From: Candidatus Woesebacteria bacterium GW2011_GWB1_39_10
Lineage (GTDB): Bacteria; Patescibacteriota; Microgenomatia; UBA8517
Direction of reading: 5' to 3'
Length of the DNA: 64,000 bases
Assembly: GCA_000993205.1 (NCBI GenBank)
Contig: LBVU01000001.1
Span: 8,155 to 72,154, forward strand
The notes under the pieces were generated by a model. It saw nothing but the letters and a program-made list of their open reading frames with translations. It ran no database searches and had not been told where the DNA came from. Numbering within the stretch: the stretch's first letter is position 1; each line of letters begins with the position of its first letter. Of the stretch, positions 17,385 to 62,869 are shown one piece after another. Position numbers and translations under genes: made by a program.

Positions 17385-18506
17385 ATGGTGAAAGTGGGCA
17401 TAAATGGTTTTGGTCGAATAGGTAGACTCGCTTTTAGAATCGGAGTTCTAAAGCATTCCGATGAAATTGAGTTTGGGGCAATTAACACTCCGGGGTCTAT
17501 GAATACGGCAAGTTGGGCACATCTTACGAATTTTGATACGATGTACAGAGAATTTCAGTACAAAGTACAAAGTACAGAGTACACCCCACTTCGCCAAGGC
17601 TCCGAGGGGCAAGGAGATCCGTTGATAGGTTATCTAATGGTGTCAGAAAAAAACCTAAAGGTGCCCGTTTTAGCACAGAAAGATCCCTCCTTGATTCCAT
17701 GGAGCAAATACGGAGTTGATGTGGTAATTGAAGCCACTGGGCACTTTATTGATGAAGAAGGTGCTAAAAAGCATGCAGTGGGAGGAGCTAAGCGAGTTGT
17801 GATTTCGGCTCCGGCCAAAGGGGGTAACGTCGGAACTTATGTTTTAGGAGTAAACGAAATGGACGGAAAGGATCCGGAGGGGATGGTAATAAGTAACGCT
17901 AGCTGTACAACAAATTGTGTTGCTCCGGTTGCCGCGGTTATGCAGGCAAAATTTGGAATTGAAAAGGCGATGATGACAACGATTCATAGTTATACGGACG
18001 ATCAAGTTTTGCAGGATAGCAGCCATAAAGATTTGAGAAGGGCGCGTGCGGCTGGGCAAAATATTATTCCAACAACAACAGGGGCTATAGTTGCAACTAC
18101 AGAAACGATACCGGAGCTCAAAGGACTTTTTGATGGTATGAGTTTAAGGGTCCCGACGACCACGGGGTCAATTACAGACTTTACATTTATTTTGAAAAGA
18201 AATGTAACTAAAGAAGAAGTAAATCAGGCATTTAAGGACGCCATAAATAACCCCATATACAAGGGTATATTGGCAGTTTCTGAGGGATTTTTGGTATCAA
18301 GCGATATCATTGGCAGAAGCGAGTCTGCAATAGTTGACTTGCCATTAACACAGGTGGTTGCGGGAAATATGGTTAAGGTTTTTGCATGGTACGACAACGA
18401 GTGGGGATACGCCAACCGCTTAGTAGAACAGGTGATACGGGTAGGAAGAACCCTGGAAGGAAACTCTGTGCCAACAGATCCGATTACACTTTCTTTTTCA
18501 AAATAA
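17385..18506 (+). CDS. gap: glyceraldehyde-3-phosphate dehydrogenase with an in-frame insertion of about 15 aa in the N-terminal domain
   Basis: INGFGRIGR and SNASCTTNC motifs. The extra segment QYKVQSTEYTPLRQGSEGQGD is encoded by repeat DNA. Confidence 0.85.
   Translation: MVKVGINGFGRIGRLAFRIGVLKHSDEIEFGAINTPGSMNTASWAHLTNFDTMYREFQYKVQSTEYTPLRQGSEGQGDPLIGYLMVSEKNLKVPVLAQKDPSLIPWSKYGVDVVIEATGHFIDEEGAKKHAVGGAKRVVISAPAKGGNVGTYVLGVNEMDGKDPEGMVISNASCTTNCVAPVAAVMQAKFGIEKAMMTTIHSYTDDQVLQDSSHKDLRRARAAGQNIIPTTTGAIVATTETIPELKGLFDGMSLRVPTTTGSITDFTFILKRNVTKEEVNQAFKDAINNPIYKGILAVSEGFLVSSDIIGRSESAIVDLPLTQVVAGNMVKVFAWYDNEWGYANRLVEQVIRVGRTLEGNSVPTDPITLSFSK
17557..17584 (+). repeat. tandem heptamer array (AGTACAR)x4 inside gap
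   Basis: agtacaa agtacaa agtacag agtacac, read directly from the sequence. Confidence 0.8.
17584..17610 (+). repeat. GC-rich 25-nt element, copy 1 (CCCACTTCGCCAAGGCTCCGAGGGG), inside gap
   Basis: Near-identical copies at 58004-58028 and 62047-62072. Confidence 0.8.
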
Positions 18507-18532
18507 AACATATCGGATAAATCAGAATTACC

Positions 18533-19198
18533 ATGATTAATATTATCCCTGCAATTCTTACAAATAACGTGACTGAACTTGAAGAAAAAGTTAAAAGGAT
18601 TAACGATGTTTCGTACATTGAGGGGACAACTGTTAGGACAATTCAAATCGACATAATCGACGGTGTGTTTGCAGACAACCGTACCGTTGATCCCGCAAAC
18701 CTAGTCGGACTGGATACAGATTTGGGGCTCGATTTTCATTTGATGGTAAAAGAACCGATTAATTGGATAGAAAAATGCGCCAACGCAGGTGCGGACCGTA
18801 TTATCGGTCAGATCGAAATGATGAAGAATCAGGTTGAATTTGTGGGGAAAGTACAGGAAACAGGATTATATGTTGGTTTGGCACTTGATCTCGAAACTCC
18901 GGTCACTGAGCTTGATTCCCTTATTTTAAATAATGTTGATGTCGTTCTTCTCATGGCTGTAAAAGCCGGTTGGGGAGGGCAAAGATTTGACAAGAGAGTA
19001 TTTGATAAAATTAAAGAATTGGATGAAATTAGATCCAGAGACAAGACACCATTTAAAATATGTGTAGATGGGGGGGAAACAACTGACGTTATTGATGACA
19101 CTCACTATGCGGGGGCAGATGAGGTTGTGATTGGGAAAAGATTGTTTGACGGAGATTTGGCAGCCAATTTTAAAAAATTTATAGAAGCAGCCCACTAA
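18533..19198 (+). CDS. rpe: ribulose-phosphate 3-epimerase
   Basis: IDIIDGVF and HLMV motifs. Confidence 0.8.
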   Translation: MINIIPAILTNNVTELEEKVKRINDVSYIEGTTVRTIQIDIIDGVFADNRTVDPANLVGLDTDLGLDFHLMVKEPINWIEKCANAGADRIIGQIEMMKNQVEFVGKVQETGLYVGLALDLETPVTELDSLILNNVDVVLLMAVKAGWGGQRFDKRVFDKIKELDEIRSRDKTPFKICVDGGETTDVIDDTHYAGADEVVIGKRLFDGDLAANFKKFIEAAH

Positions 19199-19199
19199 C

Positions 19200-19829
19200 A
19201 TGCCACAAGACTTTTTAGACAAAAAAATCAGACAAATTTCTTATTTTGGTTTTGCCGATGCAAAACCTGGAGACCCGCTTTTTGAGGAGGCTTTTGAATG
19301 CGCGAAATTTTTAACGAGTAAGGGTTATGTGGCAATAAATGGGGGAGGACCCGGAACAATGAGGGCTGTTTCGGAGGGGGCAAAAGCCGTTAACGGGACT
19401 GCGGTAGGGGTCACTTTTTATCCGAAAGATGTCGCCAATTATGAGGGTAGAGACAAAAATAACCCCTTTGATATTGAAATAAAAACGAAAAACTATTTGG
19501 AGCGGACTTTAAAATTATTAGAAATGGGAGATGCTTATGTTATTTTTAGAGGCGGAACGGGGACGATTTCAGAATTTGGAATGGCTTGGGGTTTGGCGCG
19601 TCTTTACTTTGGACACCATAAACCCCTTATTCTTTACGGCGAATTTTGGAATAACATAATTAAAGCCTTTGGTGAAAATATGAGAATAAGATCTGAAGAG
19701 CTTGAAGTTTTTAGAGTGGTTTCGACTCCCGAGGAAGCATATGCCGCGATTCAGATTTTTGAAGGAGCATTAAAAAGGAAAGAAGGGGCAAATAATGAAG
19801 AAAGCCCATTCCAAATTAAAGCCAGATAA
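19200..19829 (+). CDS. LOG-family protein (Rossmann-fold nucleotide-binding / cytokinin riboside 5'-monophosphate phosphoribohydrolase family)
   Basis: GGGPGTM and RGGTGT motifs. Confidence 0.7.
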   Translation: MPQDFLDKKIRQISYFGFADAKPGDPLFEEAFECAKFLTSKGYVAINGGGPGTMRAVSEGAKAVNGTAVGVTFYPKDVANYEGRDKNNPFDIEIKTKNYLERTLKLLEMGDAYVIFRGGTGTISEFGMAWGLARLYFGHHKPLILYGEFWNNIIKAFGENMRIRSEELEVFRVVSTPEEAYAAIQIFEGALKRKEGANNEESPFQIKAR

Positions 19830-19831
19830 AT

Positions 19832-20710
19832 ATGCAAAAATTCTCTGTTCACGAACTTGAAGAAAAGGCCAATATAATACGCGAAGATATAATTAAAATG
19901 CTTGTTGAAGCGGGGAGTGGTCATTCGGCAGGTCCCCTTGGAATGGCTGATGTTTTTGCGGCGCTCTACTTTCATATATTAAATCACGATTCACACAATC
20001 CCGCATGGGAAGAGCGCGACAGATTGATGCTTTCTAATGGTCATATTTGTCCGGTCCGTTATGCCGCCATGGCTGAAGCAGGATATTTTCCGGTTAGTGA
20101 GCTTTTAACTTTGAGAAAATTAGGGTCCAGACTTCAAGGTCATCCCGAAAGATTAAAACTTCCCGGAGTTGAAACGACATCGGGTCCTTTGGGGAGTGGG
20201 CTGGCTCAGGCTGCAGGATATGCTTATGCGGCCAAAATGGACGGCCGTAAATTTAGAGTTTACTGCGTGACAAGCGATGGAGAACACCAGGAGGGGAACC
20301 ATTGGGAAGCGGTTATGTTTGCAGCAAAATATAATCTTTCTAATTTAACCGCAATAGTCGACAGAAATAATATTCAGATTGATGGTTATACAGAAGACAT
20401 TATGCCACTTGAACCAATGGTCGAGAAATATAAAGCTTATAACTGGAGTGTTATTGAAATTGACGGGCACAATATGCAGGAAATTATCGATGCCACGGGC
20501 AAGGCAAAGGCAATATTTGAAAATCCGACAGTTATTATTGCTCACACCATTCCCGGAAAAGGAGTCGACTTTATGGAAGGGGATTATAAATGGCATGGAA
20601 ACCCTCCGGGAACAAATATTCCCGGTGAGCCGTCGAAAGACGAACAGGCAAAAATAGCTTTGCGGGAATTAAGAACATTGGGAGGAAAGATAAGATCTGA
20701 ACATCAGTAA
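19832..20710 (+). CDS. tktA: transketolase, N-terminal subunit
   Basis: GSGHSAGPLGMADVFAALYFH thiamine-diphosphate-binding region. Split-gene organisation. Confidence 0.8.
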   Translation: MQKFSVHELEEKANIIREDIIKMLVEAGSGHSAGPLGMADVFAALYFHILNHDSHNPAWEERDRLMLSNGHICPVRYAAMAEAGYFPVSELLTLRKLGSRLQGHPERLKLPGVETTSGPLGSGLAQAAGYAYAAKMDGRKFRVYCVTSDGEHQEGNHWEAVMFAAKYNLSNLTAIVDRNNIQIDGYTEDIMPLEPMVEKYKAYNWSVIEIDGHNMQEIIDATGKAKAIFENPTVIIAHTIPGKGVDFMEGDYKWHGNPPGTNIPGEPSKDEQAKIALRELRTLGGKIRSEHQ

Positions 20711-20800
20711 TTGACCTAATTATTCTAATTGCTCTAATTTTTAAATTGGGACTTATTTAGGACAATTAGATTAATTAGAACTTAGAAATTGTAGAGAGAT
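20701..20800. repeat. AT-rich CTAATT / AATTGGGA / AATTAGA intergenic repeat, copy 1 (between the tkt halves)
   Basis: Shares AATTGGGAyTTATTTAG...AATTAGA...TAATTAGAA with 60768-60865. Confidence 0.6.
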
Positions 20801-21791
20801 GTTGAATATGAAACTTAAACTAAATAATAAGCTGTTTGACGAAGATGTAGAACAATCACCAACCAGAAATGGTTACGGAGAAGGACTTGTCATCGCCGGG
20901 GAGAAAGATCCAAATGTTGTTGTTTTATGCGCAGATTTGACTGAATCCACGAGGTCTAATTTTTTCAAAGAAAAATTTCCGGGAAGATTTGTTGAAATGG
21001 GAGTGGCCGAGCAGGGGATGGCGACTGTTGCCGCCGGAATGGCAAATTACGGAAAAATTCCCTTTATCTCTTCTTACGCGGCCTTCTCGCCGGGACGTAA
21101 TTGGGAACAAATTAGAACAACAATTGCGTTAAACGACGTTCCCGTAAAAATTGCCGGGGCGCATGCTGGTTTAACTGTGGGACCGGATGGGGCAACACAT
21201 CAGATGTTGGAAGACATTGCATTAATGCGGGCAATGCCAAACATGATTGTGATTTACCCTGCGGATTCCATTGAAGCAAAGAAAGCAACTATCGCTGCAG
21301 CCACAAACGGAAAGCCAACATATATTCGTCTTGCCCGTGAGAAAACTCCCATTGTGACAATCGAGGCGACTCCTTTTAAAATCGGCAAAGCAGAAGTTTT
21401 TTGGACGTCTAAAGATCCTCAAGTTGCGATAATAGCCTCAGGCCCACTTCTTTACGAAGCACTTCTTGCTGCAAAAGAACTGACAGGGTCGCACCCTGTC
21501 ATTGTTCTCAATTGTCACACAATAAAACCGATCGATGAACAAACAATAATTCATGCAGCAAAAATATGCGGAGCAGTTGTAACTGTCGAAGAACATCAAA
21601 TCATGGGTGGGCTTGGAGGGGCAGTTGCCGAACTTTTGTCCAAAAATATTCCAACGCCGCAGGAATTTATTGGAATGCCTGATTGTTTTGGAGAATCAGG
21701 ACAACCAGACGAACTATTGGAAAAATATCATATGAAGGCAAAGGATATTATGGAAGCTGTTAAAAAAGCAATCGTCAGAAAAAACTCTTGA
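20799..21791 (+). CDS. tktB: transketolase, C-terminal subunit
   Basis: GVAEQGMATVAAGMA motif and a C-terminal domain. Confidence 0.8.
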   Translation: MLNMKLKLNNKLFDEDVEQSPTRNGYGEGLVIAGEKDPNVVVLCADLTESTRSNFFKEKFPGRFVEMGVAEQGMATVAAGMANYGKIPFISSYAAFSPGRNWEQIRTTIALNDVPVKIAGAHAGLTVGPDGATHQMLEDIALMRAMPNMIVIYPADSIEAKKATIAAATNGKPTYIRLAREKTPIVTIEATPFKIGKAEVFWTSKDPQVAIIASGPLLYEALLAAKELTGSHPVIVLNCHTIKPIDEQTIIHAAKICGAVVTVEEHQIMGGLGGAVAELLSKNIPTPQEFIGMPDCFGESGQPDELLEKYHMKAKDIMEAVKKAIVRKNS

Positions 21792-21816
21792 CAAATGTAT
21801 TGATATAGTATATACT
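21788..21816 (+). promoter_or_regulatory. sigma70 promoter (TTGACA, 17 nt, TATACT) for brnT
   Basis: Consensus hexamers ending 6 nt before the ATG at 21822. Confidence 0.5.
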
Positions 21817-21821
21817 CTTTT

Positions 21822-22587: not shown

Positions 22588-23400
22588 CTAAGGGCAAGGA
22601 GCAAATTCACAATTTGGTCCGGTTCTACCTACATAACTTCCATCAGGGCAAAGTTTTGCTTCTTTTGTGCAAGCAATGGGTTTGGCTGATGGCGAGGCTA
22701 CTGGATTAATGAATTTGAAAGTAGAAAGGATTTGATCAAAAATTTCAAGATCGTTCTGACCCTCGCTGTTAATGTAGATGTTATATATCAAACCATCCTT
22801 GTGTCTAAAAACAAAATTTGTGCCGCTTACAACATTCGAATACTTAGTTTTATAACCACTTATACCATTAATGGTAACTGGTGTTTGTTTGATGATTTTC
22901 GATTCAGTAAGACTGTTGAAGTTTTGCGGTTCTGTCGGAATTTCTCGCACTTCAATACCACCGATTCCAGATTTGGAATCGGCATTTAATCCAAAGAGGG
23001 TGTTGGCACTTGCACTTTGACTAACAACAGCTGACCAATCAGATGGATATTTGAATTGATATTTATAGGTTGGATGTGTATATGTTTTCCAATTTGCAGT
23101 TGGATCCGCCGTCGCTAAAGCTGTGGCGGACGAAGTCGGTGTCGGAGCTACTTGGTAGTTAGCAAGCATTTTCTTTAACTGTTGATTTTGGTAATACAGG
23201 AAGCCAACAGCAGAGAGAGATAAAAGGACAAACACAGCCATGCTTATTACAGTAATATTGTGTGAGCCATTTGTAATTTGTGATTTGTCATTTGGAATTT
23301 GGTCTAGAATTGGTACTTGTGGATCCATATCCAAAGTATACAACATGCCGTTGAACTCCCCAACAGTTAACTGATAGACTGGAATATATATAAATATCAT
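22588..23400 (-). CDS. membrane-anchored hypothetical protein (true start probably the internal Met near 23346)
   Basis: TM helix ISMAVFVLLSLSAVGFLYY. A C-terminal Cys pair. Confidence 0.45.
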   Translation of the reverse strand: MIFIYIPVYQLTVGEFNGMLYTLDMDPQVPILDQIPNDKSQITNGSHNITVISMAVFVLLSLSAVGFLYYQNQQLKKMLANYQVAPTPTSSATALATADPTANWKTYTHPTYKYQFKYPSDWSAVVSQSASANTLFGLNADSKSGIGGIEVREIPTEPQNFNSLTESKIIKQTPVTINGISGYKTKYSNVVSGTNFVFRHKDGLIYNIYINSEGQNDLEIFDQILSTFKFINPVASPSAKPIACTKEAKLCPDGSYVGRTGPNCEFAPCP

Positions 23401-36257: not shown

Positions 36258-36278
36258 ATCCTGAAACAAGTTCAGGAT
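36258..36278 (+). repeat. hairpin element, copy 1 (ATCCTGAA-ACAAG-TTCAGGAT); overlaps the AGGA Shine-Dalgarno of nrdJ
   Basis: Second copy at 58734-58754, inside recF. Confidence 0.6.
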
Positions 36279-38861: not shown

Positions 38862-39431
38862 ATGTCAATTTACACAAAAACAGGAGATGAAGGAACTACA
38901 AAGGTTTTTGATAAAAAATCCGGTCAACTCGTTGGCATACGTAAAGATTCTTGTACGATCGCAGCGATTGGCGCCATTGACGAACTGAATTCTTTTTTGG
39001 GAATAATAAAAGCAGAGATATTAGGATATAAAGATACTAAGATATTAAGTGAGAAAAAAACTGCAATAAAAATAGAAGAAATACAGGGGAATCTTTTTAC
39101 GATAAATTCAATTCTTGCCGGGGCAAACCTGAGGTTTTCTAAAACAAAAACTAAAAAACTGGAAAAAGAGATTGATAAATGGGAGGGAGAGTTGCCCGTC
39201 CAAAAAAACTTCATTTTTTACGGGGGAACTCCAAGAGCTTCACAGCTCTTTTATGCGCGTGCCATCTGTCGCCGTGCTGAGCGTGCTCTGGTAGTACAGA
39301 GTACAGAGTACAAAGTACCTAGCGAGTTAATGATGTATATAAATCGCCTGTCTGATTATCTGTTTATGATGGCGAGAAGCGAAAACTTCAAAAATAAAGT
39401 TAAAGAAAATTTTTGGAAAAGTTCAAAATGA
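38862..39431 (+). CDS. pduO: ATP:cob(I)alamin adenosyltransferase, PduO-type, with an in-frame repeat insertion
   Basis: YTKTGDEGTT motif. The QSTEYKV segment is encoded by a heptamer array. Confidence 0.75.
   Translation: MSIYTKTGDEGTTKVFDKKSGQLVGIRKDSCTIAAIGAIDELNSFLGIIKAEILGYKDTKILSEKKTAIKIEEIQGNLFTINSILAGANLRFSKTKTKKLEKEIDKWEGELPVQKNFIFYGGTPRASQLFYARAICRRAERALVVQSTEYKVPSELMMYINRLSDYLFMMARSENFKNKVKENFWKSSK
39294..39318 (+). repeat. tandem heptamer array (AGTACAR)x3.5 inside pduO
   Basis: agtacag agtacag agtacaa agtacc. Confidence 0.8.
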
Positions 39432-43192: not shown

Positions 43193-44056
43193 ATGAATAT
43201 CGGTGTTATTGGCTACGGTTTTGTTGGGCGGGCTACAGGAGAAGGTTTTGTGTCAAATCCAAAAAACAAGGTTTTTTGGTATGACAAATTCAAGGAATCT
43301 CCAAATACGCTGGAGGAGGTTGTAAAGAAGTCAGACTTCGTTTTTGTCTGTGTTCCAACCCCGATATTTGAAGATTACTCCGGAATGGACATGGGTATAG
43401 TTATTGGTGTGGTTGACCAAGTCGCGGAAATTTTGTCCTCCTCCGCTAAAGCTACGGAGGATAAAGTTTTAATTATCAAATCTACATCACTGCCTGGTAC
43501 AGCAAAGAAATTGGCCATCAAGTATCCAAAGATCAACTTTATTATGAATCCGGAGTTTCTTACTCAAAAAAATGCAAACCATGATTTTCTTAATCCTTCA
43601 CGAACCGTGATCGGGGCAGAATCAAAAGATGTTGCCTTAAAAGTAATAAAAATTTATAAAACGATCCTTTCAAAGAATCAGCCATACGTTGTTACTGACA
43701 CCACTAGCGCGGAAGTAATTAAGTATATGAGCAATTTGATGTTGGCCAGTAAAGTCCTTCTTGCCAATGAATTTTACGAATTGTCTAAAAAGGTCGGGGC
43801 AAATTATTTGGATGTTCAAAAAGCGGTCGAAAGTGATCCAAGAATTGGCACACACCTCGGGGTTCCCGGGCCGGATGGCGATATGGGATTCGGGGGAGCG
43901 TGTTTCCCCAAAGACATGGTTGGCATACTCGGATTGGCTAAAAAACTCAAACTGGATGTTTCCGCTCTCGAAGCCATTTGGAAGAAAAATCTCAAAGTTA
44001 GGAAACACAGAGATTGGGAAGAAATGCCACAGGCTTTTAAGAAAGATACTAAGTGA
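43193..44056 (+). CDS. UDP-glucose/GDP-mannose 6-dehydrogenase-family protein (short form lacking the C-terminal nucleotide-sugar-binding domain)
   Basis: N-terminal GYGFVGR Rossmann motif. Catalytic Cys motif GFGGACFPKD. Terminal codons KDTK* come from repeat DNA. Confidence 0.65.
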   Translation: MNIGVIGYGFVGRATGEGFVSNPKNKVFWYDKFKESPNTLEEVVKKSDFVFVCVPTPIFEDYSGMDMGIVIGVVDQVAEILSSSAKATEDKVLIIKSTSLPGTAKKLAIKYPKINFIMNPEFLTQKNANHDFLNPSRTVIGAESKDVALKVIKIYKTILSKNQPYVVTDTTSAEVIKYMSNLMLASKVLLANEFYELSKKVGANYLDVQKAVESDPRIGTHLGVPGPDGDMGFGGACFPKDMVGILGLAKKLKLDVSALEAIWKKNLKVRKHRDWEEMPQAFKKDTK

Positions 44057-46139: not shown

Positions 46140-46502
46140 CCTCCCCAGATTCTTGGATGAATCCACGTTCAGACGAACCGTGTTTTTCTGTTTGTTGCGG
46201 GGTCAGGAGTTGCGCCTGACCTGAAAGATTATGAGCCTTTCGTGCACTGTACACTACCCCGCATGTATCTAACCTCGGAATTATAACATTTTGTTCGTGT
46301 AACTCCAAAACCAAAACCACGCTACCATAATTCGAGTTATAGTAGTATGAGGCAAGCTATTGGTCATTTGAGTGTGAAATGCTAAAATAGCCGTATGTCA
46401 GGGTAGCCCCGCCTGCATCCGCCAGCAACTGCGTAGCTGTGGGCGGAAGCATTGCGGGCAGGTCAGTGGTAGTAGCGGACGTTTCATGATACATATTTGG
46501 AG

Positions 46503-46540
46503 CCTGGGTAGCTCAGTTGGTTAGAGCGTGGCAATCATGA
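46503..46540 (+). other. orphan partial copy of the tRNA-Met 5' half (acceptor 5' strand + D-arm + anticodon stem 5' side)
   Basis: CTGGGTAGCTCAGTTGGTTAGAGCGTGGCAATCAT duplicates the start of the tRNA at 46550 with 2 mismatches. Confidence 0.6.
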
Positions 46541-46549
46541 AATAAATTT

Positions 46550-46626
46550 GACTGGGTAGCTCAGTTGGTTAGAGCACGGCAATCATAACGCCGGGGTCGA
46601 GAGTCCGAATCTCTCCCCAGTCACCA
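46550..46626 (+). tRNA. tRNA-Met (anticodon CAU), CCA encoded
   Basis: Manual fold. Acceptor GACTGGG/CCCAGTC. D-arm GCTC-AGTTGGTTA-GAGC. Anticodon loop ATCATAA. T-arm GAGAG-TCCGAAT-CTCTC. 3' end ACCA. One A-C mismatch at the base of the anticodon stem. Confidence 0.7.
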
Positions 46627-47987: not shown

Positions 47988-48380
47988 ATGGACGAAATTT
48001 CATTCGATCAGTTTGAAGCAGTGGATATAAGAATCGGAACTGTTGTTAAAGCAGAAGTTCCTGAGTGGAGTCATTGGGTAATTAGGTTGGAAGTAGATTT
48101 TGGGCCCTCCTTCGCTGAAGCTACGGACGGCAAATCCACGAGGATTTGTTTTTCCGGTATCATGAAGTTCTTCAAACCCGAAGATCTTGTCGGCAAACAA
48201 TTTCCATTTGTAGTCAACTTAAAACCCCGGCCAATCGGTCCTGATAAAGAACTCTCCGAGGCGATGATGATTATGGCCTGTCCGGGGGACACCTCGGAAG
48301 ATAAGAAAGTTCAGGAAGAAACTCCTACAGTTTTGTTTAATCTTCAGGAAAAAGTTCCGGATGGGACAAAAGTAAGATAA
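47988..48380 (+). CDS. tRNA-binding domain protein (CsaA / Trbp111-like OB fold)
   Basis: VDIRIGTVV...VVNLKPRPI resembles the tRNA_bind (Myf) domain. Confidence 0.65.
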   Translation: MDEISFDQFEAVDIRIGTVVKAEVPEWSHWVIRLEVDFGPSFAEATDGKSTRICFSGIMKFFKPEDLVGKQFPFVVNLKPRPIGPDKELSEAMMIMACPGDTSEDKKVQEETPTVLFNLQEKVPDGTKVR

Positions 48381-50308: not shown

Positions 50309-51244
50309 ATGTCTTCTAAATTGGTAATCATCGATGGGAATGCCATAATGCATCGGGCGTTTCATGCCATTCCCCCCTTGACCACCCCAAAAGGGGAACC
50401 TATAAACGCGGTTTACGGTCTTACCTCTATGCTTCTTAAGGTAATCGGAGAAATTAAACCGACACATTTTGCCGTGGCATTTGACAGAAAAGAGCCGACT
50501 TTTAGACAAAAAGAATTACCCACATACCAAGCCCAGCGTCCGCCAATGGCCAGTGAACTCTCTTGCCAGTTTGAAAAAGCCAGAGAATTCTTAACTGCAG
50601 CCGGAATTCCTGTTTATTCAAAAGCGGGGTTTGAAGCGGATGATGTGATTGGTACGCTTGCTGAGCAAGCGACCAAAAATCCGAAATCCGAAATCCGAAA
50701 TCCGAAATTTGACGGAGTTGTGATAGTGACCGGAGACAGAGATCAATTACAACTTATAGATGACAAACTTAATATAAAACTTTACATGCCGGTTGCAGGA
50801 ATATTGAATGCAAAGTTATATGGAGAGGTGGATACGATTGAGAGAATGGGGGTTCCACCAACTCAAATTGTTGACCTCAAGGCGCTGACGGGAGATACCT
50901 CCGATAATTATTTTGGAGTTCCTGGTATTGGGCCAAAAACAGCGATCAATCTGTTACAGTGTTCTAGAACAATAGAACAGATATATAAGGATTTGGACAA
51001 ATTGCCTGGTAAATTGAGAGAGAAACTTGAGAAAGGGAAGAAGTCGGCTGATCAATCTTATTTCTTGGCGACGATAGATCGAAATGTTCCAATAGATATT
51101 GATTTCGAAGGAATGGGAAAGTGGAACATCGCCGGACAAAACGTATTAAACTTATTTGAAGAATTCGGATTTAAAACACTGACTAAAAGAATTCAAGACG
51201 TCGGACGCAAAATTGAAGAGGAAAAACAAGGGTCATTATTCTGA
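50309..51244 (+). CDS. 5'-3' exonuclease (stand-alone Pol I N-terminal / FEN-like domain) with an in-frame heptamer-repeat insertion
   Basis: VIIDGNAIMHRAFHA...INAVYG. The KNPKSEIRNPKF segment is encoded by (AAATCCG)x4. Confidence 0.75.
   Translation: MSSKLVIIDGNAIMHRAFHAIPPLTTPKGEPINAVYGLTSMLLKVIGEIKPTHFAVAFDRKEPTFRQKELPTYQAQRPPMASELSCQFEKAREFLTAAGIPVYSKAGFEADDVIGTLAEQATKNPKSEIRNPKFDGVVIVTGDRDQLQLIDDKLNIKLYMPVAGILNAKLYGEVDTIERMGVPPTQIVDLKALTGDTSDNYFGVPGIGPKTAINLLQCSRTIEQIYKDLDKLPGKLREKLEKGKKSADQSYFLATIDRNVPIDIDFEGMGKWNIAGQNVLNLFEEFGFKTLTKRIQDVGRKIEEEKQGSLF
50677..50708 (+). repeat. tandem heptamer array (AAATCCG)x4 inside the 5'-3' exonuclease gene
   Basis: aaatccg aaatccg aaatccg aaatccg aaat. 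Confidence 0.85.
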
Positions 51245-51289: not shown

Positions 51290-52435
51290 ATGAAGAAATT
51301 AAAAATTGCCATAGTACATGATTATTTAAAAGAATATGGTGGGGCGGAAAGGGTAGTGGAGGCCATGCTTGAAATTTGGCCCGATGCCCCAGTTTATACG
51401 ACGGTTTTTTTGCCGGAATTTTTAGGTCCGCATAGAACGCGTGTCGAGAAATGGGATATAAGAACTTCTTTTTTGCAAAAAATCCCATTTAACGCAAAGC
51501 TTATAAGTTTGTTTAGGTTTATAGCTCCGTTTGTATTCTCGACGATGGATTTAACAAAGTATGACGTTGTGGTAGTGTCATCTGCCGGCACGTACACAAG
51601 CCCAAATTTTATACGAATGAATAAAAAAAGTACTCTAGTGTGTTATTATCATACACCTCCTAGATATCTGTACGGCTATCCTGTTGCAAATGACTGGAGA
51701 AATAATATTTTCCGCAGGATGTTATTAGCACTGGGTCAGATCCCGATGTTCTTTCTAAGGATTCTTGACAAACGCGCTGCACAAATTCCAGACTACGTGT
51801 TAGCTAATTCAAAGGAGGTGGCAGGGAGGATTAGAAGGTTTTATAACAGAGAAGCTACAGTAATTTATCCACCTGTGGAGATACCCAAACTCGAAATCCG
51901 AAACTCGAAATCCGAAACTCGAAACTACTACCTAATTGGGAGCAGGGTATCACGCCACAAAGGACACGATATTGCAATAAAAGCTTTTACAAAATTAGGT
52001 TATAAACTAAATGTTTTTGGTGGAACTTTTGCTTCGTATGGTTTGGACCAATTTAAAAAAGATGCCGGTGCAAATATTAAATTTTTGGGCGAAGTGACGG
52101 AAGACGAAAAATTGGATTTAATGAAAAATGCAAAAGCTTTTATTTATCCATCAGAACATGAGGATTTTGGAATCGTCCCTGTAGAAACTATGGCAGCAGG
52201 GACTCCCGTAATCGCATTAGCCCAAGGCGGCCCGCTCGAAACTATTATTGACGGCAAGACTGGGGTGTTTTTTAAAGAAAGGACGATTGAAAGTTTGATT
52301 GCTGCTGTTAAAAAATCTGAGAAGATGAAATTTAAATCTGAAGACTGTGTCTCTCAAGCAAAAAAATTTAGCAAGGAAAGATTTAAACGCGAAATGCTAC
52401 AATTTGTTGACACCCATGCCCAAAACGAAAAATAG
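51290..52435 (+). CDS. glycosyltransferase family 4 with an in-frame heptamer-repeat insertion
   Basis: C-terminal GT-B motifs (EDFGIVPVETMAAGTPVI). The LEIRNSKSETRN segment is encoded by a GAAAYYC array. Confidence 0.7.
   Translation: MKKLKIAIVHDYLKEYGGAERVVEAMLEIWPDAPVYTTVFLPEFLGPHRTRVEKWDIRTSFLQKIPFNAKLISLFRFIAPFVFSTMDLTKYDVVVVSSAGTYTSPNFIRMNKKSTLVCYYHTPPRYLYGYPVANDWRNNIFRRMLLALGQIPMFFLRILDKRAAQIPDYVLANSKEVAGRIRRFYNREATVIYPPVEIPKLEIRNSKSETRNYYLIGSRVSRHKGHDIAIKAFTKLGYKLNVFGGTFASYGLDQFKKDAGANIKFLGEVTEDEKLDLMKNAKAFIYPSEHEDFGIVPVETMAAGTPVIALAQGGPLETIIDGKTGVFFKERTIESLIAAVKKSEKMKFKSEDCVSQAKKFSKERFKREMLQFVDTHAQNEK
51887..51926 (+). repeat. tandem heptamer array (CGAAATC / CGAAACT) x about 5.5 inside the GT4 gene
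   Basis: aaactcgaaatccgaaactcgaaatccgaaactcgaaact. Confidence 0.85.
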
Positions 52436-52886: not shown

Positions 52887-53750
52887 ATGCCGGAATTACC
52901 AGAGGTCGAGTCAATGAAACTTCAGCTTGCAAAGTTCCTTGTCGGGCACAAGATACTTGGCGTAGAAATTCGAAATCCGAAATACGAAATTCGAAAAGAT
53001 ATCATAGGAGGGAAGATAACAGGAATCAGAAGATTTGGGAAAGTTTCTGTGATAGATCTTGATAATGGTTATTCAATCCTTACACACGTAAAACTTACTG
53101 GCCAATATATTTATCGTGGTCCAAATTTACCTAAACCCTATACGCTATCCGCTAAAGTTATCGGAGGTATCCCCGGGCCACATACTTTGGTAATTTTCAA
53201 ATTAGATCACGATGGTGTTTTGTATTACAACGATGTTCGTCGTTTTGGGTGGATAAAAATTGTGGATAGCGGACAGGTGATAGCGGATAGGTTTATAGAT
53301 AAACTGGGACCAGAGCCCTTCGGCAAGCCTCAGGGTAAACCCTCTCTTCTAACCTTGGATTTGTTCAAACAAATATTATCCAAAACTTCCCGTCCAATTA
53401 AAATCGTTCTTATGGACCAGACGAAAGTGGGGGGGGTGGGGAATATTTATGCAAACGATGCGCTTTGGCTTGCCAAAATTAATCCAAAGCGAAAAGCGAA
53501 TAGTGTAGAAGGAAAAGAGGCTAAAGAATTATATGAAGCAATATTAACTGTATTAAGAGAAGGGTTAAAATACGGAGGGGCAAGTGAGCTTGCATTTGTG
53601 ACGCCGGATGGGAAAGAGGGAAAATATCAAAATCATACGTTGGCTTATGGACATGAAGGAGAACTTTGCGGCCGTTGTCATAAGGCTAAATTTATTAAAT
53701 ATTTTCTCGGCGGGCGCGGGACTTATGTTTGCCCAAACTGTCAGAAATAG
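52887..53750 (+). CDS. formamidopyrimidine-DNA glycosylase / endonuclease VIII family (Fpg/Nei) with an in-frame heptamer-repeat insertion
   Basis: N-terminal MPELPEVE. C-terminal zinc finger CGRCH...CPNCQ. The EIRNPKYEIRKD segment comes from a GAAAYYC array. Confidence 0.75.
   Translation: MPELPEVESMKLQLAKFLVGHKILGVEIRNPKYEIRKDIIGGKITGIRRFGKVSVIDLDNGYSILTHVKLTGQYIYRGPNLPKPYTLSAKVIGGIPGPHTLVIFKLDHDGVLYYNDVRRFGWIKIVDSGQVIADRFIDKLGPEPFGKPQGKPSLLTLDLFKQILSKTSRPIKIVLMDQTKVGGVGNIYANDALWLAKINPKRKANSVEGKEAKELYEAILTVLREGLKYGGASELAFVTPDGKEGKYQNHTLAYGHEGELCGRCHKAKFIKYFLGGRGTYVCPNCQK
52965..52998 (+). repeat. tandem heptamer array (GAAATYC)x about 5 inside the fpg gene
   Basis: gaaattc gaaatcc gaaatac gaaattc gaaaag. 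Confidence 0.85.
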
Positions 53751-57790: not shown

Positions 57791-58909
57791 ATGATATCCA
57801 GCATAAAACTTTCCAATTTCAGAAATTTTAAATCTAAGAATTTTGAATTTTCTGACAAAATCACAACAATTGTCGGGCCGAACGCTTCAGGGAAAACTAA
57901 TATTTTAGAAGCTCTTTACCTTCTTTCGACGGGAAAAAGTTTCAAAGCCAGAACTGAGGTGGAAATGATTCAATATGGGAGTGAATTAGCTAGTGTAGAA
58001 GGGTCCCACTTCGCCAAGGCTACGAGGGACGACCGATCTCTTTTAAAGGTAATTATTACAAATAAAATTAATGGATGGCCCGGAAAAAGAGTTTTATTAA
58101 ATAATGTACCCAAGAGATTGGTCGATTTTGCGGGAAATTTTAAGACGGTTTTGTTTGGACCTTGGGACATGGATTTGGTAACAGATTCCCCGTCGCTTCG
58201 GCGAAAATTTTTAGATACGGTTTTATCCCAGACTGATAGAGAATATCGCCGCTCAATTCTTTCTTATGAAAAAGGAATAAGACAAAGAAACAAACTTTTG
58301 TGGAGAATACGCGAGGACCCTTCATTACATTCAGGGCGAGAGGGGTTATTGCTTTTTTGGAACCAGCTGTTAATTAAATCCGGCAATTATATTACCGATC
58401 AAAGGGAAAAATTTATTGTTTTCGCGAATACTACCAATGAACACCAATTCCAAAGTGTTCACGCTGGTGCGATAAATACCAATTACCAATTGAAATACGA
58501 TCAGTCCACAATATCTGAAGGACGGTTGGAACAGTATTCTAAAGAAGAGGTGATGGCGGCGACAACTTTAGTTGGACCACATAGGGATGATATGCAATTT
58601 AAAATTAATAATTCAAAATTTAAAATTGAGAGGAACTTGGCCGCATTCGGGAGCAGGGGGGAGCAAAGAATGGGAGTTTTGTGGTTAAAGTTGGCGGAGT
58701 TGGATTATATTGAACTTCAAAGCAAGAATGAAGGTCCTGAAACAAGTTCAGGACGTCCAACGTTGTTGTTGGACGACATATTTTCCGAACTTGACCATGA
58801 ACACAGAGACGTTGTAATGGAGTTGGCCAAGAGACAACAGACGGTAATAACAACCGCAGATGAGCATTTTTTGAACAAAGGTAAATTTGGTGGTAAAATC
58901 GAACTCTAA
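57791..58909 (+). CDS. recF: DNA replication and repair protein RecF carrying two in-frame repeat-element insertions
   Basis: Walker A GPNASGKTN. Walker B / D-loop LLLDDIFSELD. Extra segments SHFAKATRDD and GPETSSGRP come from repeat elements. Confidence 0.8.
   Translation: MISSIKLSNFRNFKSKNFEFSDKITTIVGPNASGKTNILEALYLLSTGKSFKARTEVEMIQYGSELASVEGSHFAKATRDDRSLLKVIITNKINGWPGKRVLLNNVPKRLVDFAGNFKTVLFGPWDMDLVTDSPSLRRKFLDTVLSQTDREYRRSILSYEKGIRQRNKLLWRIREDPSLHSGREGLLLFWNQLLIKSGNYITDQREKFIVFANTTNEHQFQSVHAGAINTNYQLKYDQSTISEGRLEQYSKEEVMAATTLVGPHRDDMQFKINNSKFKIERNLAAFGSRGEQRMGVLWLKLAELDYIELQSKNEGPETSSGRPTLLLDDIFSELDHEHRDVVMELAKRQQTVITTADEHFLNKGKFGGKIEL
58004..58028 (+). repeat. GC-rich 25-nt element, copy 2 (TCCCACTTCGCCAAGGCTACGAGGG), inside recF
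   Basis: Matches 17584-17610 and 62047-62072. Confidence 0.8.
58734..58754 (+). repeat. hairpin element, copy 2 (GTCCTGAA-ACAAG-TTCAGGAC), inside recF
   Basis: Matches 36258-36278. Confidence 0.7.
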
Positions 58910-59184: not shown

Positions 59185-59656
59185 TCCGGCGGAAACCAAA
59201 AAATTGTTTAGTCCGGAAGACGGAACTAAAAATGGACAAATTACAATAATTGGTGGATCCGAACTTTTCCACGGCGCACCGCTTTTGTCATTAACAGTTG
59301 CTTCAAAAATTGTTGATATGGTTTATTTTTCCTCACCTGACCCATCTGTTGGGGAGGTGGCCAACGCCGCCAAGTCAAAACTATTTTCATTTATATGGGT
59401 TCCATGGGAAGATGTTGGTAAGTGTATTGAGGTTTCCGGGGGTAATGCCGGAATGGCAAAGGGAGGAACGGGAGATACACTTGCCGGGCTTGTCGTCGCT
59501 TTGTTTGCAAAAAATGAAGCATCTCTTGCAGCTTCGTGCGCATCATATATAACCAAAACCGCCGGTGATGAATTGTACGGAAAAGTTAGAACCAATTTTA
59601 ATGCAGATGATTTGGCGGCAAAAGTGCCGGAGGTTTTGGGTAGACTTCAAAGATAG
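59162..59656 (+). CDS. YjeF C-terminal-like (NAD(P)H-hydrate dehydratase family) protein, truncated 164-aa form
   Basis: GGSELFHGAP and GTGDTLAG motifs. Confidence 0.4.
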   Translation: MEREIQFDPAETKKLFSPEDGTKNGQITIIGGSELFHGAPLLSLTVASKIVDMVYFSSPDPSVGEVANAAKSKLFSFIWVPWEDVGKCIEVSGGNAGMAKGGTGDTLAGLVVALFAKNEASLAASCASYITKTAGDELYGKVRTNFNADDLAAKVPEVLGRLQR

Positions 59657-59702
59657 TTAGTATCTTGTTTTCTCCGCAGAAAATGCGTTAATATGAAGTG
59701 AT

Positions 59703-60767
59703 ATGTATTCCCCTAAGTTTACAATTTCAAATAAAGTTCTCAAAAACATTGGGTCTATTGAAGCGAGTAAGGAGGTAATTGAAAACGCCCCGCTTGTGCC
59801 TTCATTTGAAAAACAGTTTCAGTCAGACGCGATGATCCGGACCATCCATCACGGCACACACATTGAGGGGAATGATTTAACTCTTTATCAGACTAAAAGA
59901 ATTCTTGAAGGGGAAGAAGTTTACGCTCGGGCGCGTGACATCCAAGAGGTTGTTAACTATCGGAATGTAACACAACTTCTTGACGAACTGGCAGTCAAAA
60001 GGGGCGGGTATGACCCCGATATGCTTCGCGATATTCATAAATCGACGGTTGATAGAATTATTGTTCCAGAAAAAGTTGGAGTTTTTAGAACTACGGAAGT
60101 GGTAATTAAAGAAGAAGGTACAGGAAGAGTTATTTTTTCTCCGCCTCCGGCTAACGAAGTCCCATATCTTGTTGAAGATTTTTTTGAATGGCTAAATGAT
60201 TCTTCCGGAAAAGAGATCCATCCGATTCTCCGCGCCGGTATTGCTCACTATATTCTGGTTGCAATTCATCCTTTTGTGGAAGGGAACGGCAGAACCGTGC
60301 GCGCTTTTTCTACACTTATTCTTATGAGGGAAAGCTATAATATTAAAAAGTTTTTTTCACTTGAGGAACATTTTGATCAGGACCCCGCCGCTTATTATGA
60401 AGCAATTTCAATAGTTGATAGACAATCTTCAAACCTTGGAAACCGAGACGTTACTTTGTGGTTGGAATATTTTACGGAAGTTGTGGCGATAGAGCTTGCG
60501 AAAGTCAAAGAAAAAGTCAGGAAACTTTCGGTCGACTCGCGTTTGAAGGTTAAATTTGGTGAACAGATTTCTTTATCCGAGCGTCAGATGAGGCTTATTG
60601 AATATGTATCCGATCAGGGTAGCGGAGGAATGGGAGAGCTCAAAAAAGTTTTACCTATGGTTTCTGAGGACACAATCTTGAGGGAATTAAGAGACCTTTT
60701 GGAAAAAGGGATCTTGAAGAAAACAGGAAGCACGAAGGCCAGCAAGTATGTGATAGCGAGTAAGTAG
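59703..60767 (+). CDS. Fic-family protein (AMPylator-type Fic motif) with a C-terminal wHTH-like domain
   Basis: HPFVEGNGRTVRA matches HxFx(D/E)GNGRxxR. Confidence 0.75.
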   Translation: MYSPKFTISNKVLKNIGSIEASKEVIENAPLVPSFEKQFQSDAMIRTIHHGTHIEGNDLTLYQTKRILEGEEVYARARDIQEVVNYRNVTQLLDELAVKRGGYDPDMLRDIHKSTVDRIIVPEKVGVFRTTEVVIKEEGTGRVIFSPPPANEVPYLVEDFFEWLNDSSGKEIHPILRAGIAHYILVAIHPFVEGNGRTVRAFSTLILMRESYNIKKFFSLEEHFDQDPAAYYEAISIVDRQSSNLGNRDVTLWLEYFTEVVAIELAKVKEKVRKLSVDSRLKVKFGEQISLSERQMRLIEYVSDQGSGGMGELKKVLPMVSEDTILRELRDLLEKGILKKTGSTKASKYVIASK

Positions 60768-60865
60768 AATTAACCTAATTACTAATTAACCTAATTGACC
60801 TAAACAAGCTCCAATTGGGATTTATTTAGAAATTAGAATAATTAGAGTAATTAGAAATTTAAATA
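60768..60865. repeat. AT-rich CTAATT/AATTGGGA/AATTAGA intergenic repeat, copy 2
   Basis: Matches 20701-20800. Confidence 0.6.
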
Positions 60866-61077
60866 TGAGTACAACTGATCCGCAATTTTTGTATATGATT
60901 TTGGTATTACCGAGCTTGTTCGGATTGACCCTTTTGGGTGAAGGACTCAATAAGGTCGTTCATGAGGAATGGGGAGGTGGAGTTCTTTCAATAATTTTCG
61001 GATTGATTTTTTTGGGAGCAGTCGTTTTTGCCTATCTATTCTTCTCAACTTATCTTGTTACACATAAAGCGATTTAA
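60865..61077 (+). CDS. small membrane protein (70 aa, two TM helices)
   Basis: Hydrophobic ORF. Confidence 0.3.
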   Translation: MSTTDPQFLYMILVLPSLFGLTLLGEGLNKVVHEEWGGGVLSIIFGLIFLGAVVFAYLFFSTYLVTHKAI

Positions 61078-61144
61078 GGCGACACGAATACGCTGATTGC
61101 ACGCGAATGACACGAATTTTTGATGTGTCGTATAATGTAACGAA

Positions 61145-62869
61145 ATGAAATTTAAAGTATTTGCTGAATATTTAGAAAAACTGGAGAAGACGCCTTCGAG
61201 GCTGGAAATAACCAGGATTTTGACTGACCTTTTTAAAGATACTTCTTCAGGTGAAATCCAAAAAACCGTATATTTATCGCTTGGTGTTTTGGCCCCGAAT
61301 TATGAAGGTGTTTTATTAAATCTGGCTGAGAAGATGGTGGCGAGAGCCATTGCAATCGCGTATAAACAAGATCTTCAGACGGTCTCGAAGACGTATAAGG
61401 AAAAAGGGGATATGGGGGATGTTGCGGAACACTACCATAATTCGAATTATGGTAGTGCTATGAATAAAAATTTGTCTGTTACAGATGTATACGAAAAGTT
61501 ATTAGAAATTGCGAGGGATGACGGGGAGGGGAGTGCGGATCGGAAAATAAAAAAAATGGCAGACATACTTGCGAGGGTTGATCCCTTGTCTGCGAGGTAT
61601 TTAGCCAGAATTCCGGTCGGAAAACTCAGACTTGGATTTTCTGAAAAAACTGTGATAGCTGCTTTAGCGAAAAGTGACAAGAAACAAGAGGTGGAGATAG
61701 AAAAGGCCTACAACATTAGACCGGATATTGGCTATATTGCCCGGTTGGTAAAAAGTAACAAGTTACAAGAAACAAGACCGGAGGTGGGGGTTCCGGTAGT
61801 TCCTATGCTTGCACAAAGACTGAACTCAACTAGCGAAATGATAAAAAAGATGAGAGAGGTGTCGGTTGAACCAAAATTCGATGGGCTTAGAATTTTTATT
61901 CATTTTCGGCGCAAGGACAATCTAATCAAAATATTCACACGCAATATGAATGCGATTGATATAAACACTTTTCCGGAACTCCTAGATGTTGGCAAGTACA
62001 TCAAAGCTGATGAGACCATTTTGGATACTGAAGCAATTGGTCTGGACCCCACTTCGCCAAGGCTTCGCGGGGCAGGCCCCGTTTTTCTTGACTTTCAAAG
62101 AACTATCCAACGTCGTCGTAAACATGATATTGCAAAAAACGCCTCAGAAATTCCACTCCAATTTCAGGTATTCGATATACTTCTTGTCAACGGAAAAAGT
62201 CTTATCAATACCCCGTATGTTGCCAGAAGAGAAGAGTTAGAGAAGGTTGTTGTTAATGGAGGTCTACTCAGAGTGGACGAGAATACAATAACAGATAATC
62301 CTGAGGTAATTAAAAAGTATCACGAAAAATATTTAAAAATGGGACTTGAAGGCGTTGTTGTTAAAAAAGCTAATGCAGGCTATGTCTCGGGAAGAACTGG
62401 ATGGAACTGGATAAAGATGAAGGAGGCCGAGGGTCAGTCGGGAAGATTATCCGATACAGTCGATTGCGTTGTAATGGGGTATTCAGTTGGGAAGGGTAAG
62501 CGATCCGGTTTTGGGGTTGGACAATTTTTAGTTGGCGTTAAAGATGGAGATGTATTCAAATCTGTTACAAAAGTTGGTACAGGGCTTACAGATGAACAGT
62601 TTAGGGAATTAAACACAAGACTCAGAAAACTTTCGACAAAAGAAAAACCCAAAGAGTACGAAGTTCACAATGATCTAACTCCCGATTATTGGGTCAGCCC
62701 CAGTCTTGTAGTAGAGCTTGCGGCCGATGAGATTACGAAAAGCCCTAAACACACTTCGGGTCTTGCCCTCCGGTTCCCGCGGCTCGTCAATTTCCGTGAT
62801 GACAAAAGTGTCGGCGAAGCCACAACTATCAAAGAGCTTCGAGAAATGTTAAGAATGCAGAAAGTCTAA
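61145..62869 (+). CDS. ATP-dependent DNA ligase carrying an in-frame repeat-element insertion
   Basis: Motif I KFDGLR. Adenylation and OB domains. The extra segment DPTSPRLRGAGP comes from the 25-nt element. Confidence 0.8.
   Translation: MKFKVFAEYLEKLEKTPSRLEITRILTDLFKDTSSGEIQKTVYLSLGVLAPNYEGVLLNLAEKMVARAIAIAYKQDLQTVSKTYKEKGDMGDVAEHYHNSNYGSAMNKNLSVTDVYEKLLEIARDDGEGSADRKIKKMADILARVDPLSARYLARIPVGKLRLGFSEKTVIAALAKSDKKQEVEIEKAYNIRPDIGYIARLVKSNKLQETRPEVGVPVVPMLAQRLNSTSEMIKKMREVSVEPKFDGLRIFIHFRRKDNLIKIFTRNMNAIDINTFPELLDVGKYIKADETILDTEAIGLDPTSPRLRGAGPVFLDFQRTIQRRRKHDIAKNASEIPLQFQVFDILLVNGKSLINTPYVARREELEKVVVNGGLLRVDENTITDNPEVIKKYHEKYLKMGLEGVVVKKANAGYVSGRTGWNWIKMKEAEGQSGRLSDTVDCVVMGYSVGKGKRSGFGVGQFLVGVKDGDVFKSVTKVGTGLTDEQFRELNTRLRKLSTKEKPKEYEVHNDLTPDYWVSPSLVVELAADEITKSPKHTSGLALRFPRLVNFRDDKSVGEATTIKELREMLRMQKV
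62047..62072 (+). repeat. GC-rich 25-nt element, copy 3 (CCCCACTTCGCCAAGGCTTCGCGGGG), inside the ligase gene
   Basis: Matches 17584-17610 and 58004-58028. Confidence 0.8.

Follow-up and report, generated by a model that had tools for sequence, protein, structure and literature searches.

In a 64,000-nt stretch of contig LBVU01000001.1 (positions 8,155 to 72,154; assembly GCA_000993205.1) from Candidatus Woesebacteria bacterium GW2011_GWB1_39_10, hereafter the window, we found a GC-rich DNA hairpin repeat embedded in frame in three conserved housekeeping genes. The repeat is a 30-nt unit with a conserved loop and 3' tail, and it belongs to a family that extends across very distant phyla. Independent lineages have repeatedly acquired inserts in the same loops of ligase, GAPDH, RecF and UvrC, sometimes from different hairpin families. 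We assign a probability of roughly 60% to the reading that the unit is a hairpin resembling repetitive extragenic palindromes (REPs), free of stop codons and mobile, which is recurrently inserted or replaced at preferred loops.

A GC-rich repeat read in three frames

The first-pass annotation of this DNA described a 25-nt element in three copies inside gap, recF and DNA ligase. All three copies are real, and the coordinates given for them were at most one base off. The core CCCACTTCGCCAAGGCTNCGNGGG[G/A] matched at 17585-17609, 58005-58029 (one mismatch) and 62048-62072, always on the + strand, and no match to it appeared in 100 dinucleotide-preserving shuffles of the window. The count of three holds for the exact core but not for the total, because three further diverged copies and a second hairpin family are also present. 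Likewise, 25 nt is the length of the core, but the true unit spans 30 nt. The host open reading frames (ORFs) and the complete units are:

17385-18506, ORF for type I GAPDH, carries a core copy
57791-58909, ORF for RecF, carries a core copy
61145-62869, ORF for ATP-dependent DNA ligase, carries a core copy
17584-17613, + strand, family A unit in GAPDH: CCCCAC TTCGCCAAGGCT CCGA GGGG CAAG; read TPLRQGSEGQ
58004-58033, + strand, family A unit in recF: TCCCAC TTCGCCAAGGCT ACGA GGGA CGAC; read SHFAKATRDD
62047-62076, + strand, family A unit in ligase: CCCCAC TTCGCCAAGGCT TCGC GGGG CAGG; read PTSPRLRGAG

The G+C content of the element is ~67-70%, against ~40% for the window (a figure that leaves out its first 8 kb), in agreement with the earlier description of a GC-rich repeat in DNA of about 40% G+C. 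The GAPDH of the window matches a protein from a Candidatus Woesebacteria GW2011 genome at 100% identity.

Because the copies are read in three different frames (TPLRQGSEGQG in GAPDH, SHFAKATRDD in RecF and PTSPRLRGAG in ligase), this is a repeat at the nucleotide level, as originally proposed; all three frames also occur among 64 sense copies elsewhere. Only short length and high G+C speak for a shared protein motif or for a sequencing, adapter or assembly artefact, and we give these explanations next to no likelihood. The motif is ruled out by three copies in three frames within one genome, with all frames and both orientations used elsewhere. An adapter origin, which the first-pass annotation itself had raised, is excluded by in-frame copies in intact ORFs of independent assemblies (NCBI, JGI, ENA and Logan), of a closed 1.08-Mb genome and of the Geomonas paludis isolate genome. 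Covariation of the stems, described next, argues against motif and artefact alike.

Anatomy of the repeat unit

A scan with the exact core CACTTCGCCAAGGCTNCGNGGG against one genome per GTDB species returned at least 119 loci, from which 120 copies were aligned together with their flanks. The borders were sharp: similarity began at N-CC before the core and ended with N'-CARG(C) after it, and flanks beyond these points were unrelated. N and N' formed a Watson-Crick closing pair in 117 of the 120 copies (C-G 79, T-A 31, A-T 4, G-C 3), and the positions next outward did not pair. Since the borders and the closing pair both end there, the unit is 30 nt long. Its last four positions read CARG (C in 108 copies, A in 99, A or G in 74 and 29, G in 90), or CYTG on the other strand. 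The general unit therefore consists of a 6-bp stem, a loop TTCGCYRARGCT-x-C (14-nt loop region) and the 3' tail CARG. The subfamily found in the window has the stem NCCCAC/GyGGGN', and the A-y mismatch within it accounts for the weak folding of the three main copies.

As the exact-core search had fixed most of the stem, we scanned metagenome contigs a second time with only the loop, the CG and the tail held constant (TTCGCYRARGCTNCGNNNNNCARG), which gave 122 distinct units. Over the six positions on each side of the loop, 87.7% of cells paired, compared with 69.2% after shuffling, and none of 500 shuffles reached the observed value. Sliding the partner by 1-3 columns reduced pairing to 31-49%. 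Five of the six stem pairs varied on both sides, and G-T pairs were rare. The stem is free in sequence but constrained to pair, and the loop and CARG tail are conserved.

Inspection of the consensus showed no stop codon in any of the three sense frames, and the length of the unit is a multiple of three, amounting to ten codons. A copy in a tolerant surface loop would consequently leave the protein intact, with about 7-10 extra residues; DPTSPRLRGAGPVFLDFQR is an example of a peptide predicted from the 30 nt. Conservation of the frame suggests that the inserts are translated.

Occupied and empty sites among orthologs

Relative to solved structures, the window proteins carry extra residues: ~16 in GAPDH, 4 at the family A site and 8 at a family B site in RecF, and 7 in ligase. 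The earlier statement that homologs have no equivalent residues thus holds against solved structures and for 115 of 120 ligases but fails against the close relatives of GAPDH, which already have a loop of similar length.

The ligase is the simplest case. The element is missing from 115 of 120 close homologs, which read D-P-[KE]-R-E-[MG]-F-L-D-F-Q, and only four homologs and the window read DPTSPRLRGAG. The net gain is +21 nt in the window relative to the closed sister genome CP066686 and +18 nt in P0121, and the event replaced ~10-13 nt with ~28-34 nt. An AlphaFold model built from 56 sequences has pLDDT below 50 for residues 302-337, with the insert at the start of this stretch.

In GAPDH, the loop was already long in the Woesebacteria clade (QSTEY-KDPKEVTDE-DPLIG), and close homologs read KDPKEVTDE or KASDQATDG at this position. 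The window, P0039, P0068 and P0080 instead have TPLRQGS[EA]GQ in place of the resident loop, such that ~23 nt became ~29 nt, a net gain of 6 nt (2 aa). Of 120 GAPDH homologs, 116 are without the element, and in other lineages the loop holds different GC-rich inserts, for example PSTSSGQDSA and SSTKASEGLSS. The unoccupied ligase and GAPDH sites both read GAC CCN AAG, having ACCC and AAG in common with the element.

RecF has accepted more than one hairpin family. Alignment of 120 RecF homologs (P0241-P0360) revealed two hypervariable loops, at residues ~70-80 and 309-322, which depending on lineage hold family A (SHFA[KE]A, or LRQGFAGQA in another frame), family B (G[PT]ETSS[GA]) or several further peptides that derive from repeats; many homologs lack any insert there. 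Family B is a hairpin with a 7-8-bp stem and loop ACAAG, in which the CAAGC tail as in family A is present only sometimes. In the window, the B hairpin of recF is a clean 24-nt in-frame insertion that sister genome CP066686 is without. The A copy is orthologous in CP066686 but diverged (TCCCACTTCGCTGAAGCTTTGAGGGACGAC), with both stem arms unchanged and the loop and neighbouring codons changed. The proposed check that a sister genome lacks the insertion gave a positive answer for the ligase copy but not for the recF A copy. In two Paceibacterota, the same UvrC loop is occupied by the element, once in each orientation.

We also observed at least five unrelated inserts of repeat origin in the RecF loops across Woesebacteria, including ICHMPYAL...HN, ...GAQRDSLRSRHP, STSLTIRR and PSTSSG types, with protein lengths from 334 to 398 aa.

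Recurrence at the same sites

Neighbour-joining trees of ligase, GAPDH and RecF were constructed with the loops left out. Carriers were not monophyletic in any of them, and the nearest neighbours of each carrier were non-carriers. At the A site, a RecF that is 84% identical to that of the window holds another insert. Ligase carriers with genes 65-69% identical to that of the window have the same 30 nt with one base different, including an identical left junction GAC|CCCAC. More broadly, the DNA of the element is nearly identical among ligase and GAPDH carriers with genes that are 65-72% identical. Flanks of ligase carriers were no closer to each other than to those of non-carriers, and the same was true of GAPDH.

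These observations rule out two simple histories. Scattered carriers in the three trees exclude a single ancient insertion followed by vertical descent, and flanks that are no more alike among carriers than among non-carriers exclude transfer of a carrier allele by homologous recombination. Together, scattered carriers, nearly identical element DNA and flanks no closer than those of non-carriers point to repeated insertion or replacement at preferred sites.

Spread, hosts and orientation

The element is not specific to this genome; it is one subfamily of a cross-phylum hairpin family. The exact-core loci, at least 119 in number, come from Patescibacteria, Verrucomicrobiota, Geomonas and some Proteobacteria. 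Spread beyond the candidate phyla radiation (CPR) is supported mainly by Verrucomicrobiota on long contigs, the Geomonas paludis isolate, Alphaproteobacteria metagenome-assembled genomes (MAGs) from the rumen, and Rickettsiales. Viral contigs contained only one match, on which basis we rejected a phage-borne element.

Several MAGs titled "uncultured Gammaproteobacteria/Pseudomonadales" (loci L055, L017, L097 and others) have Patescibacteria-like genes and gene order. In L055, Fic lies beside an ATP-dependent DNA ligase, as in the window, and L017 and L097 cluster with Saccharibacteria RpsB/Tsf. Judging by these genes, the titles are probably wrong and hide Patescibacteria, which would make the spread across phyla somewhat narrower than record titles suggest.

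Open frames of at least 120 codons contained 87 of 124 exact-core copies, a crude measure because 88% of random positions also lie in such frames; open-frame calls are unreliable in GC-rich contigs. Among these 87 copies, the ratio of sense to antisense was 64:23, and the sense copies were divided 33:16:15 over the three frames. At low-GC loci the ratio was 33:7 (sense with positive skew 27, sense with negative skew 6, antisense with positive skew 3, antisense with negative skew 4). Copies tended to face the G-rich strand (73:41). The host genes include:

Replication and repair: DNA polymerase I, UvrD-like helicase-nuclease, UvrA, UvrC (3), RecJ (2), DNA ligase (3)
Further replication and repair: polymerase X, RecF, ribonucleotide reductase (2), type I restriction subunit
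tRNA-related: LeuRS (5), ThrRS, AlaRS, ArgRS, MnmG, MiaB, TGT
Metabolic: GAPDH, transketolase, PFOR, CTP synthase, phosphoglucomutase

An alternative to a tolerated selfish insert is that selection maintains the hairpin at each site for a function in cis. As RNA or DNA, it could be bound by a conserved factor, cause transcription or translation to pause, or determine how stable the mRNAs of repair and translation genes are. This would fit the near identity of the element among ligase and GAPDH carriers, which includes synonymous positions, and the recF stem that stayed unchanged between the window and its sister as the loop and flanking codons changed. It would also fit the strong sense bias, the enrichment of hosts for DNA repair, aminoacyl-tRNA synthetases and tRNA-modification enzymes, a family B copy that overlaps the ribosome-binding region of a ribonucleotide reductase gene, and a terminator-like hairpin at the ligase copy. 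Yet most orthologs do without the element, its carriers are scattered in trees, different families and frames swap within one loop, and decayed copies exist. Moreover, no known RNA family matched, and the rarity of G-T pairs in stems does not suggest an RNA helix. We therefore regard selection on a cis-element as unlikely.

Most copies were solitary: the metagenome sample contained 132 of these, compared with 14 that had a neighbour in direct orientation and 11 that had one in inverted orientation. Geomonas paludis has an intergenic cluster of direct and inverted units resembling a bacterial interspersed mosaic element. Longer arrangements were also seen. In five rumen Alphaproteobacteria MAGs (L008, L018, L065, L075 and L113), the hairpin sits inside a longer repeat, ACCCCCGCCAT-hairpin-CCGTGGTCCCCTCCCCACG, and in six Verrucomicrobiota loci (L043, L059, L073, L084, L086 and L119) inside CGCA-hairpin-AAGCCGCA. 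Its position within longer conserved repeats indicates that the hairpin is reused as a module of larger composite elements.

Junctions and mechanism

Copies that lie in A/T-rich heptamer arrays (L022, L054, L055, L062 and L101) allowed the borders to be read directly, since the array resumes in phase if N is taken as the last base of the preceding unit. An array in phase means that the insertion was clean, that no target was duplicated and that N' complements a flank base. The association with heptamers is itself a modest enrichment (4 of 116 copies, compared with 0.6% of control positions), and the arrays were used mainly to read borders. Nested copies at L024, L050, L052, L071, L085 and L097 provided a second view of target choice: the inner copy is always at TTCGCY^RARGCT of the outer loop.

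The favoured explanation is the mobile hairpin introduced above. According to this model, the element would be non-autonomous, REP-like mobile DNA copied as a single-stranded hairpin by an enzyme acting in trans that would recognise the loop together with the CARG tail. The model enzyme is a Y1/HUH transposase of the RAYT or IS200 type, as suggested by the conserved loop, free stem, terminal tetranucleotide, absence of duplication and preference for single-stranded loops. Such an enzyme would target single-stranded or hairpin-prone DNA by preference, and selection would keep only in-frame events in permissive loops.

Several results weigh against mobility of this kind. A phmmer search with E. 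coli RayT detected no RayT-like ORF in ~1.7 Mb of flanking DNA, although one gene is expected per genome and the result is weak either way. Nor did any protein family recur beside the copies: when 2409 ORFs from 119 loci were clustered all against all, only housekeeping families emerged. The tag CARG/CYTG is unlike the GTAG or CGTC of described REPs, and the three main copies in the window are thermodynamically weak hairpins (DNA fold z = +0.35, -1.5 and +0.6). Recurrence at the same site and in the same frame is more precise than would follow from the flank consensus, which is weak (43% of copies have A at -4 and 36% have G at -5). Furthermore, the strand bias is not separable from gene orientation, and events within genes are unequal-length replacements, not clean insertions.

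These replacements bear on another explanation, templated repair or gene conversion, in which a break or stalled fork at a hairpin-prone or microhomologous site would be repaired with another copy as template and the resident bases overwritten. The unequal exchanges in ligase and GAPDH are as this process predicts, as are the ACCC and AAG shared by both unoccupied sites with the element, the replacement of resident elements by other families at the same loop, and the lack of a target duplication or a nearby transposase. It does not account for insertions between heptamer units that are clean and without loss of flank, nor for nested copies always at one point of the outer loop. By our estimate from two sites, chance could produce microhomologies this short, and a match between N' and a flank base is not expected from a copied template. 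On balance, templated repair appears improbable as the main source of the copies.

A more far-reaching version of the mobile hairpin, which we consider possible though doubtful, is that the family represents a new class of minimal mobile DNA, with 30 nt, ten stop-free codons, homing-like precision and a cross-phylum enzyme that would read the loop and CARG tail. The comparison with homing is motivated by recurrence of the same site, orientation and frame in independent lineages, by insertion into the loops of other hairpins, and by a closing base complementary to a target base. If this were true, small genomes would have a systematic route to new protein loops, through recurrent colonisation of existing loops in their repair and translation enzymes.

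Other repeats and features of the window

With both families included, the 64-kb window contains nine hairpin copies, all on the + strand, all singletons and eight of nine intragenic. Those beyond the three main copies are:

23105-23134, + strand, diverged family A: TCCGCC GTCGCTAAAGCT GTG GCGGA CGAA; antisense to a PsbP-like gene on the - strand
43436-43465, + strand, diverged family A: TCCTCC TCCGCTAAAGCT ACG GAGGA TAAA; in a UDP-glucose dehydrogenase-like gene; read SSSAKATEDK; fold z = -3.0
48105-48134, + strand, diverged family A: CCCTCC TTCGCTGAAGCT ACG GACGG CAAA; in a tRNA-binding-domain gene; read GPSFAEATDGK
58733-58756, + strand, family B: GGTCCTGAA ACAAG TTCAGGACGT; in recF; read GPETSSGR; fold z = -4.1
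9000-9023, + strand, family B: CCCTGAG ACAAG CTCAGGG CAAGC; in a class II aminoacyl-tRNA-synthetase-like gene; read LRQAQGK
36258-36278, + strand, family B: ATCCTGAA ACAAG TTCAGGAT; intergenic, 8 nt upstream of the ribonucleotide reductase ATG

The 3' arm of the hairpin at 36258-36278 holds AGGA at the expected position of a ribosome-binding site. Two further features adjoin main copies:

62067-62092, + strand, terminator-like hairpin: GCGGGG CAGG CCCCGT followed by TTTTCTT, made of the 3' half of the ligase copy and adjacent bases
17557-17583, + strand, heptamer array: four AGTACAR units, coding QYKVQSTEY and abutting the GAPDH copy

The terminator-like site lies in sense orientation within an apparently intact ligase gene, and carrier P0207 has the similar sequence GGGGCAGGTCCCATTTTT.

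The array beside the GAPDH copy is one of seven in-frame A/T-rich heptamer arrays of 3-6 units, with units AAATCCG, AAACTCG, GAAATTC, AGTACAR, GTAACAA and ATTTGTA and reads such as KNPKSEIRNPK and QYKVQSTEY. They are located at:

50677-50708, in the gene of a 5'-3' exonuclease
51887-51926, in a glycosyltransferase gene
52965-52996, in an Fpg/Nei gene
39293-39318, in a cobalamin-adenosyltransferase-like gene
61748-61776, in the ligase gene
23269-23301, in the PsbP-like gene
17557-17583, in the GAPDH gene

These arrays look like a second kind of nucleotide repeat that has become protein loops.

Three additional features were observed. Two tRNA-Met genes lie on opposite strands within 46194-46626, and the second is closely preceded by a 35-nt partial copy of its own 5' part (46504-46538 compared with 46552-46586). 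The 34 nt at 46322-46355 recur in inverted form at 61422-61455, inside the ligase gene. Positions 1-8000 of the window have a G+C content of 45-49%, compared with ~37-44% elsewhere, and much denser GC-rich islands; this segment could be of different origin, an island or an assembly join.

Comparison with known systems

The closest parallels are REPs and REPINs (Di Nocera et al. 2013, PMC3733652; Bertels and Rainey 2011, PMC3116915). REPs carry GTAG or CGTC tags and form sub-families with alternative complementary stems, and intragenic REPs are occasionally in frame, in repair genes, DNA ligase (Opitutus terrae) and tRNA synthetases (PMC3733652). Our family is likewise an imperfect palindrome in the 20-40-nt range, with a conserved tetranucleotide beside the stem and sub-families that differ in stem bases, and it occurs as singletons and as tandem or inverted clusters without target duplication. 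Its hosts resemble those of the minority of REP copies inside genes, notably DNA repair, DNA ligase and tRNA synthetases. The short palindromic stem-loop expected of a REP is present (30 nt, 6-bp stem), but the terminal GTAG or CGTC is absent, its place being taken by CARG (CYTG on the other strand). Moreover, the loop is conserved across phyla here, not the tag alone, and eight of nine window copies are intragenic, in contrast to the mostly extragenic copies of REPs and REPINs. The sequence occurs in neither the text nor the supplements of PMC3733652.

The first-pass annotation had compared the behaviour of the repeat with that of Rickettsia palindromic elements (RPEs), and the comparison is apt for RPEs and intragenic REPs alike (PMC3733652). 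RPE-4 and RPE-6 are CGTC-type REPs; the same paper cites Ogata et al. 2000 for RPEs and says of RPE-1 only that it is "longer" (PMC3733652). In both cases, a small genome has palindromic repeats in frame within its housekeeping genes, in loops and compatible with protein function. RPE-1 is ~100-150 nt in length. Our unit is much shorter at 30 nt, has no sequence relationship with RPEs and spans several phyla. No RPE domain model was among the NCBIfam matches (E ≤ 0.1) to GAPDH, RecF and ligase.

With IS200/IS605-type elements the family has in common a recognised hairpin, a 3' tetranucleotide, absence of target duplication, complementarity between flank and element, and an orientation bias. 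IS200/IS605 elements and their miniatures have two different ends and at least ~100 nt, and insert 3' of a fixed 4-5-nt target. In contrast, no TnpA, TnpB or RAYT was detected here, and mobility of the hairpin is proposed by analogy. Yeast mitochondrial GC clusters and "byp" inserts are also short GC-rich palindromes inside protein-coding genes of AT-rich, compact genomes, the latter being bypassed by the ribosome. They belong to another domain of life and have other sequences, and the stop-free, 3n design of the present unit argues for translation rather than bypass of the byp type.

We rejected three further classes. A miniature inverted-repeat transposable element would have the terminal inverted repeats of a parent IS, a target-site duplication and a length of 70-300 nt, whereas our unit has 30 nt and its insertions in heptamer arrays are clean, with no duplication. 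The anatomy does not fit a tRNA-derived element. A CRISPR repeat is excluded by dispersed singletons and by rare tandem copies with a period of 37 nt and only ~6-7 nt between units, where a regular array would have unique spacers of ~30 nt. In Rfam 15, the window gave only two tRNA matches at the gathering threshold, and nothing relevant appeared at E ≤ 10 around the ligase copy.

The exact sequences are absent from the searchable literature, a 2025 REP survey does not mention Patescibacteria, and the REP surveys consulted do not mention CPR. In line with the first-pass annotation, which knew of no description in CPR-like genomes, we found none in the literature searched; this hairpin family and its presence in CPR do not appear to have been described before. 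We file it as an element that works like a REP or RPE and is not a member of the GTAG, CGTC or RPE families.

Implications

These results extend the phenomenon of RPEs and intragenic REPs to the candidate phyla radiation and identify one hairpin family, with conserved loop and tail and a free stem, that is common to very distant phyla. They may account for short peptides of low complexity in predicted proteins of CPR (for example PTSPRLRGAG, HFAKASRGK, PLRQGFAGQA and GPETSSG). Such peptides are translated nucleotide repeats, and this affects how the proteins should be annotated, aligned and placed in trees. If the mobilising enzyme were found, it would be a compact, sequence-programmable inserter of single-stranded DNA. 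Recurrent occupation of the same loops offers a natural system in which to study target choice by short mobile DNA and the ways in which proteins tolerate or recruit added loops. In Woesebacteria, this element, other hairpin families and heptamer arrays together repeatedly colonise the same loops of housekeeping enzymes.

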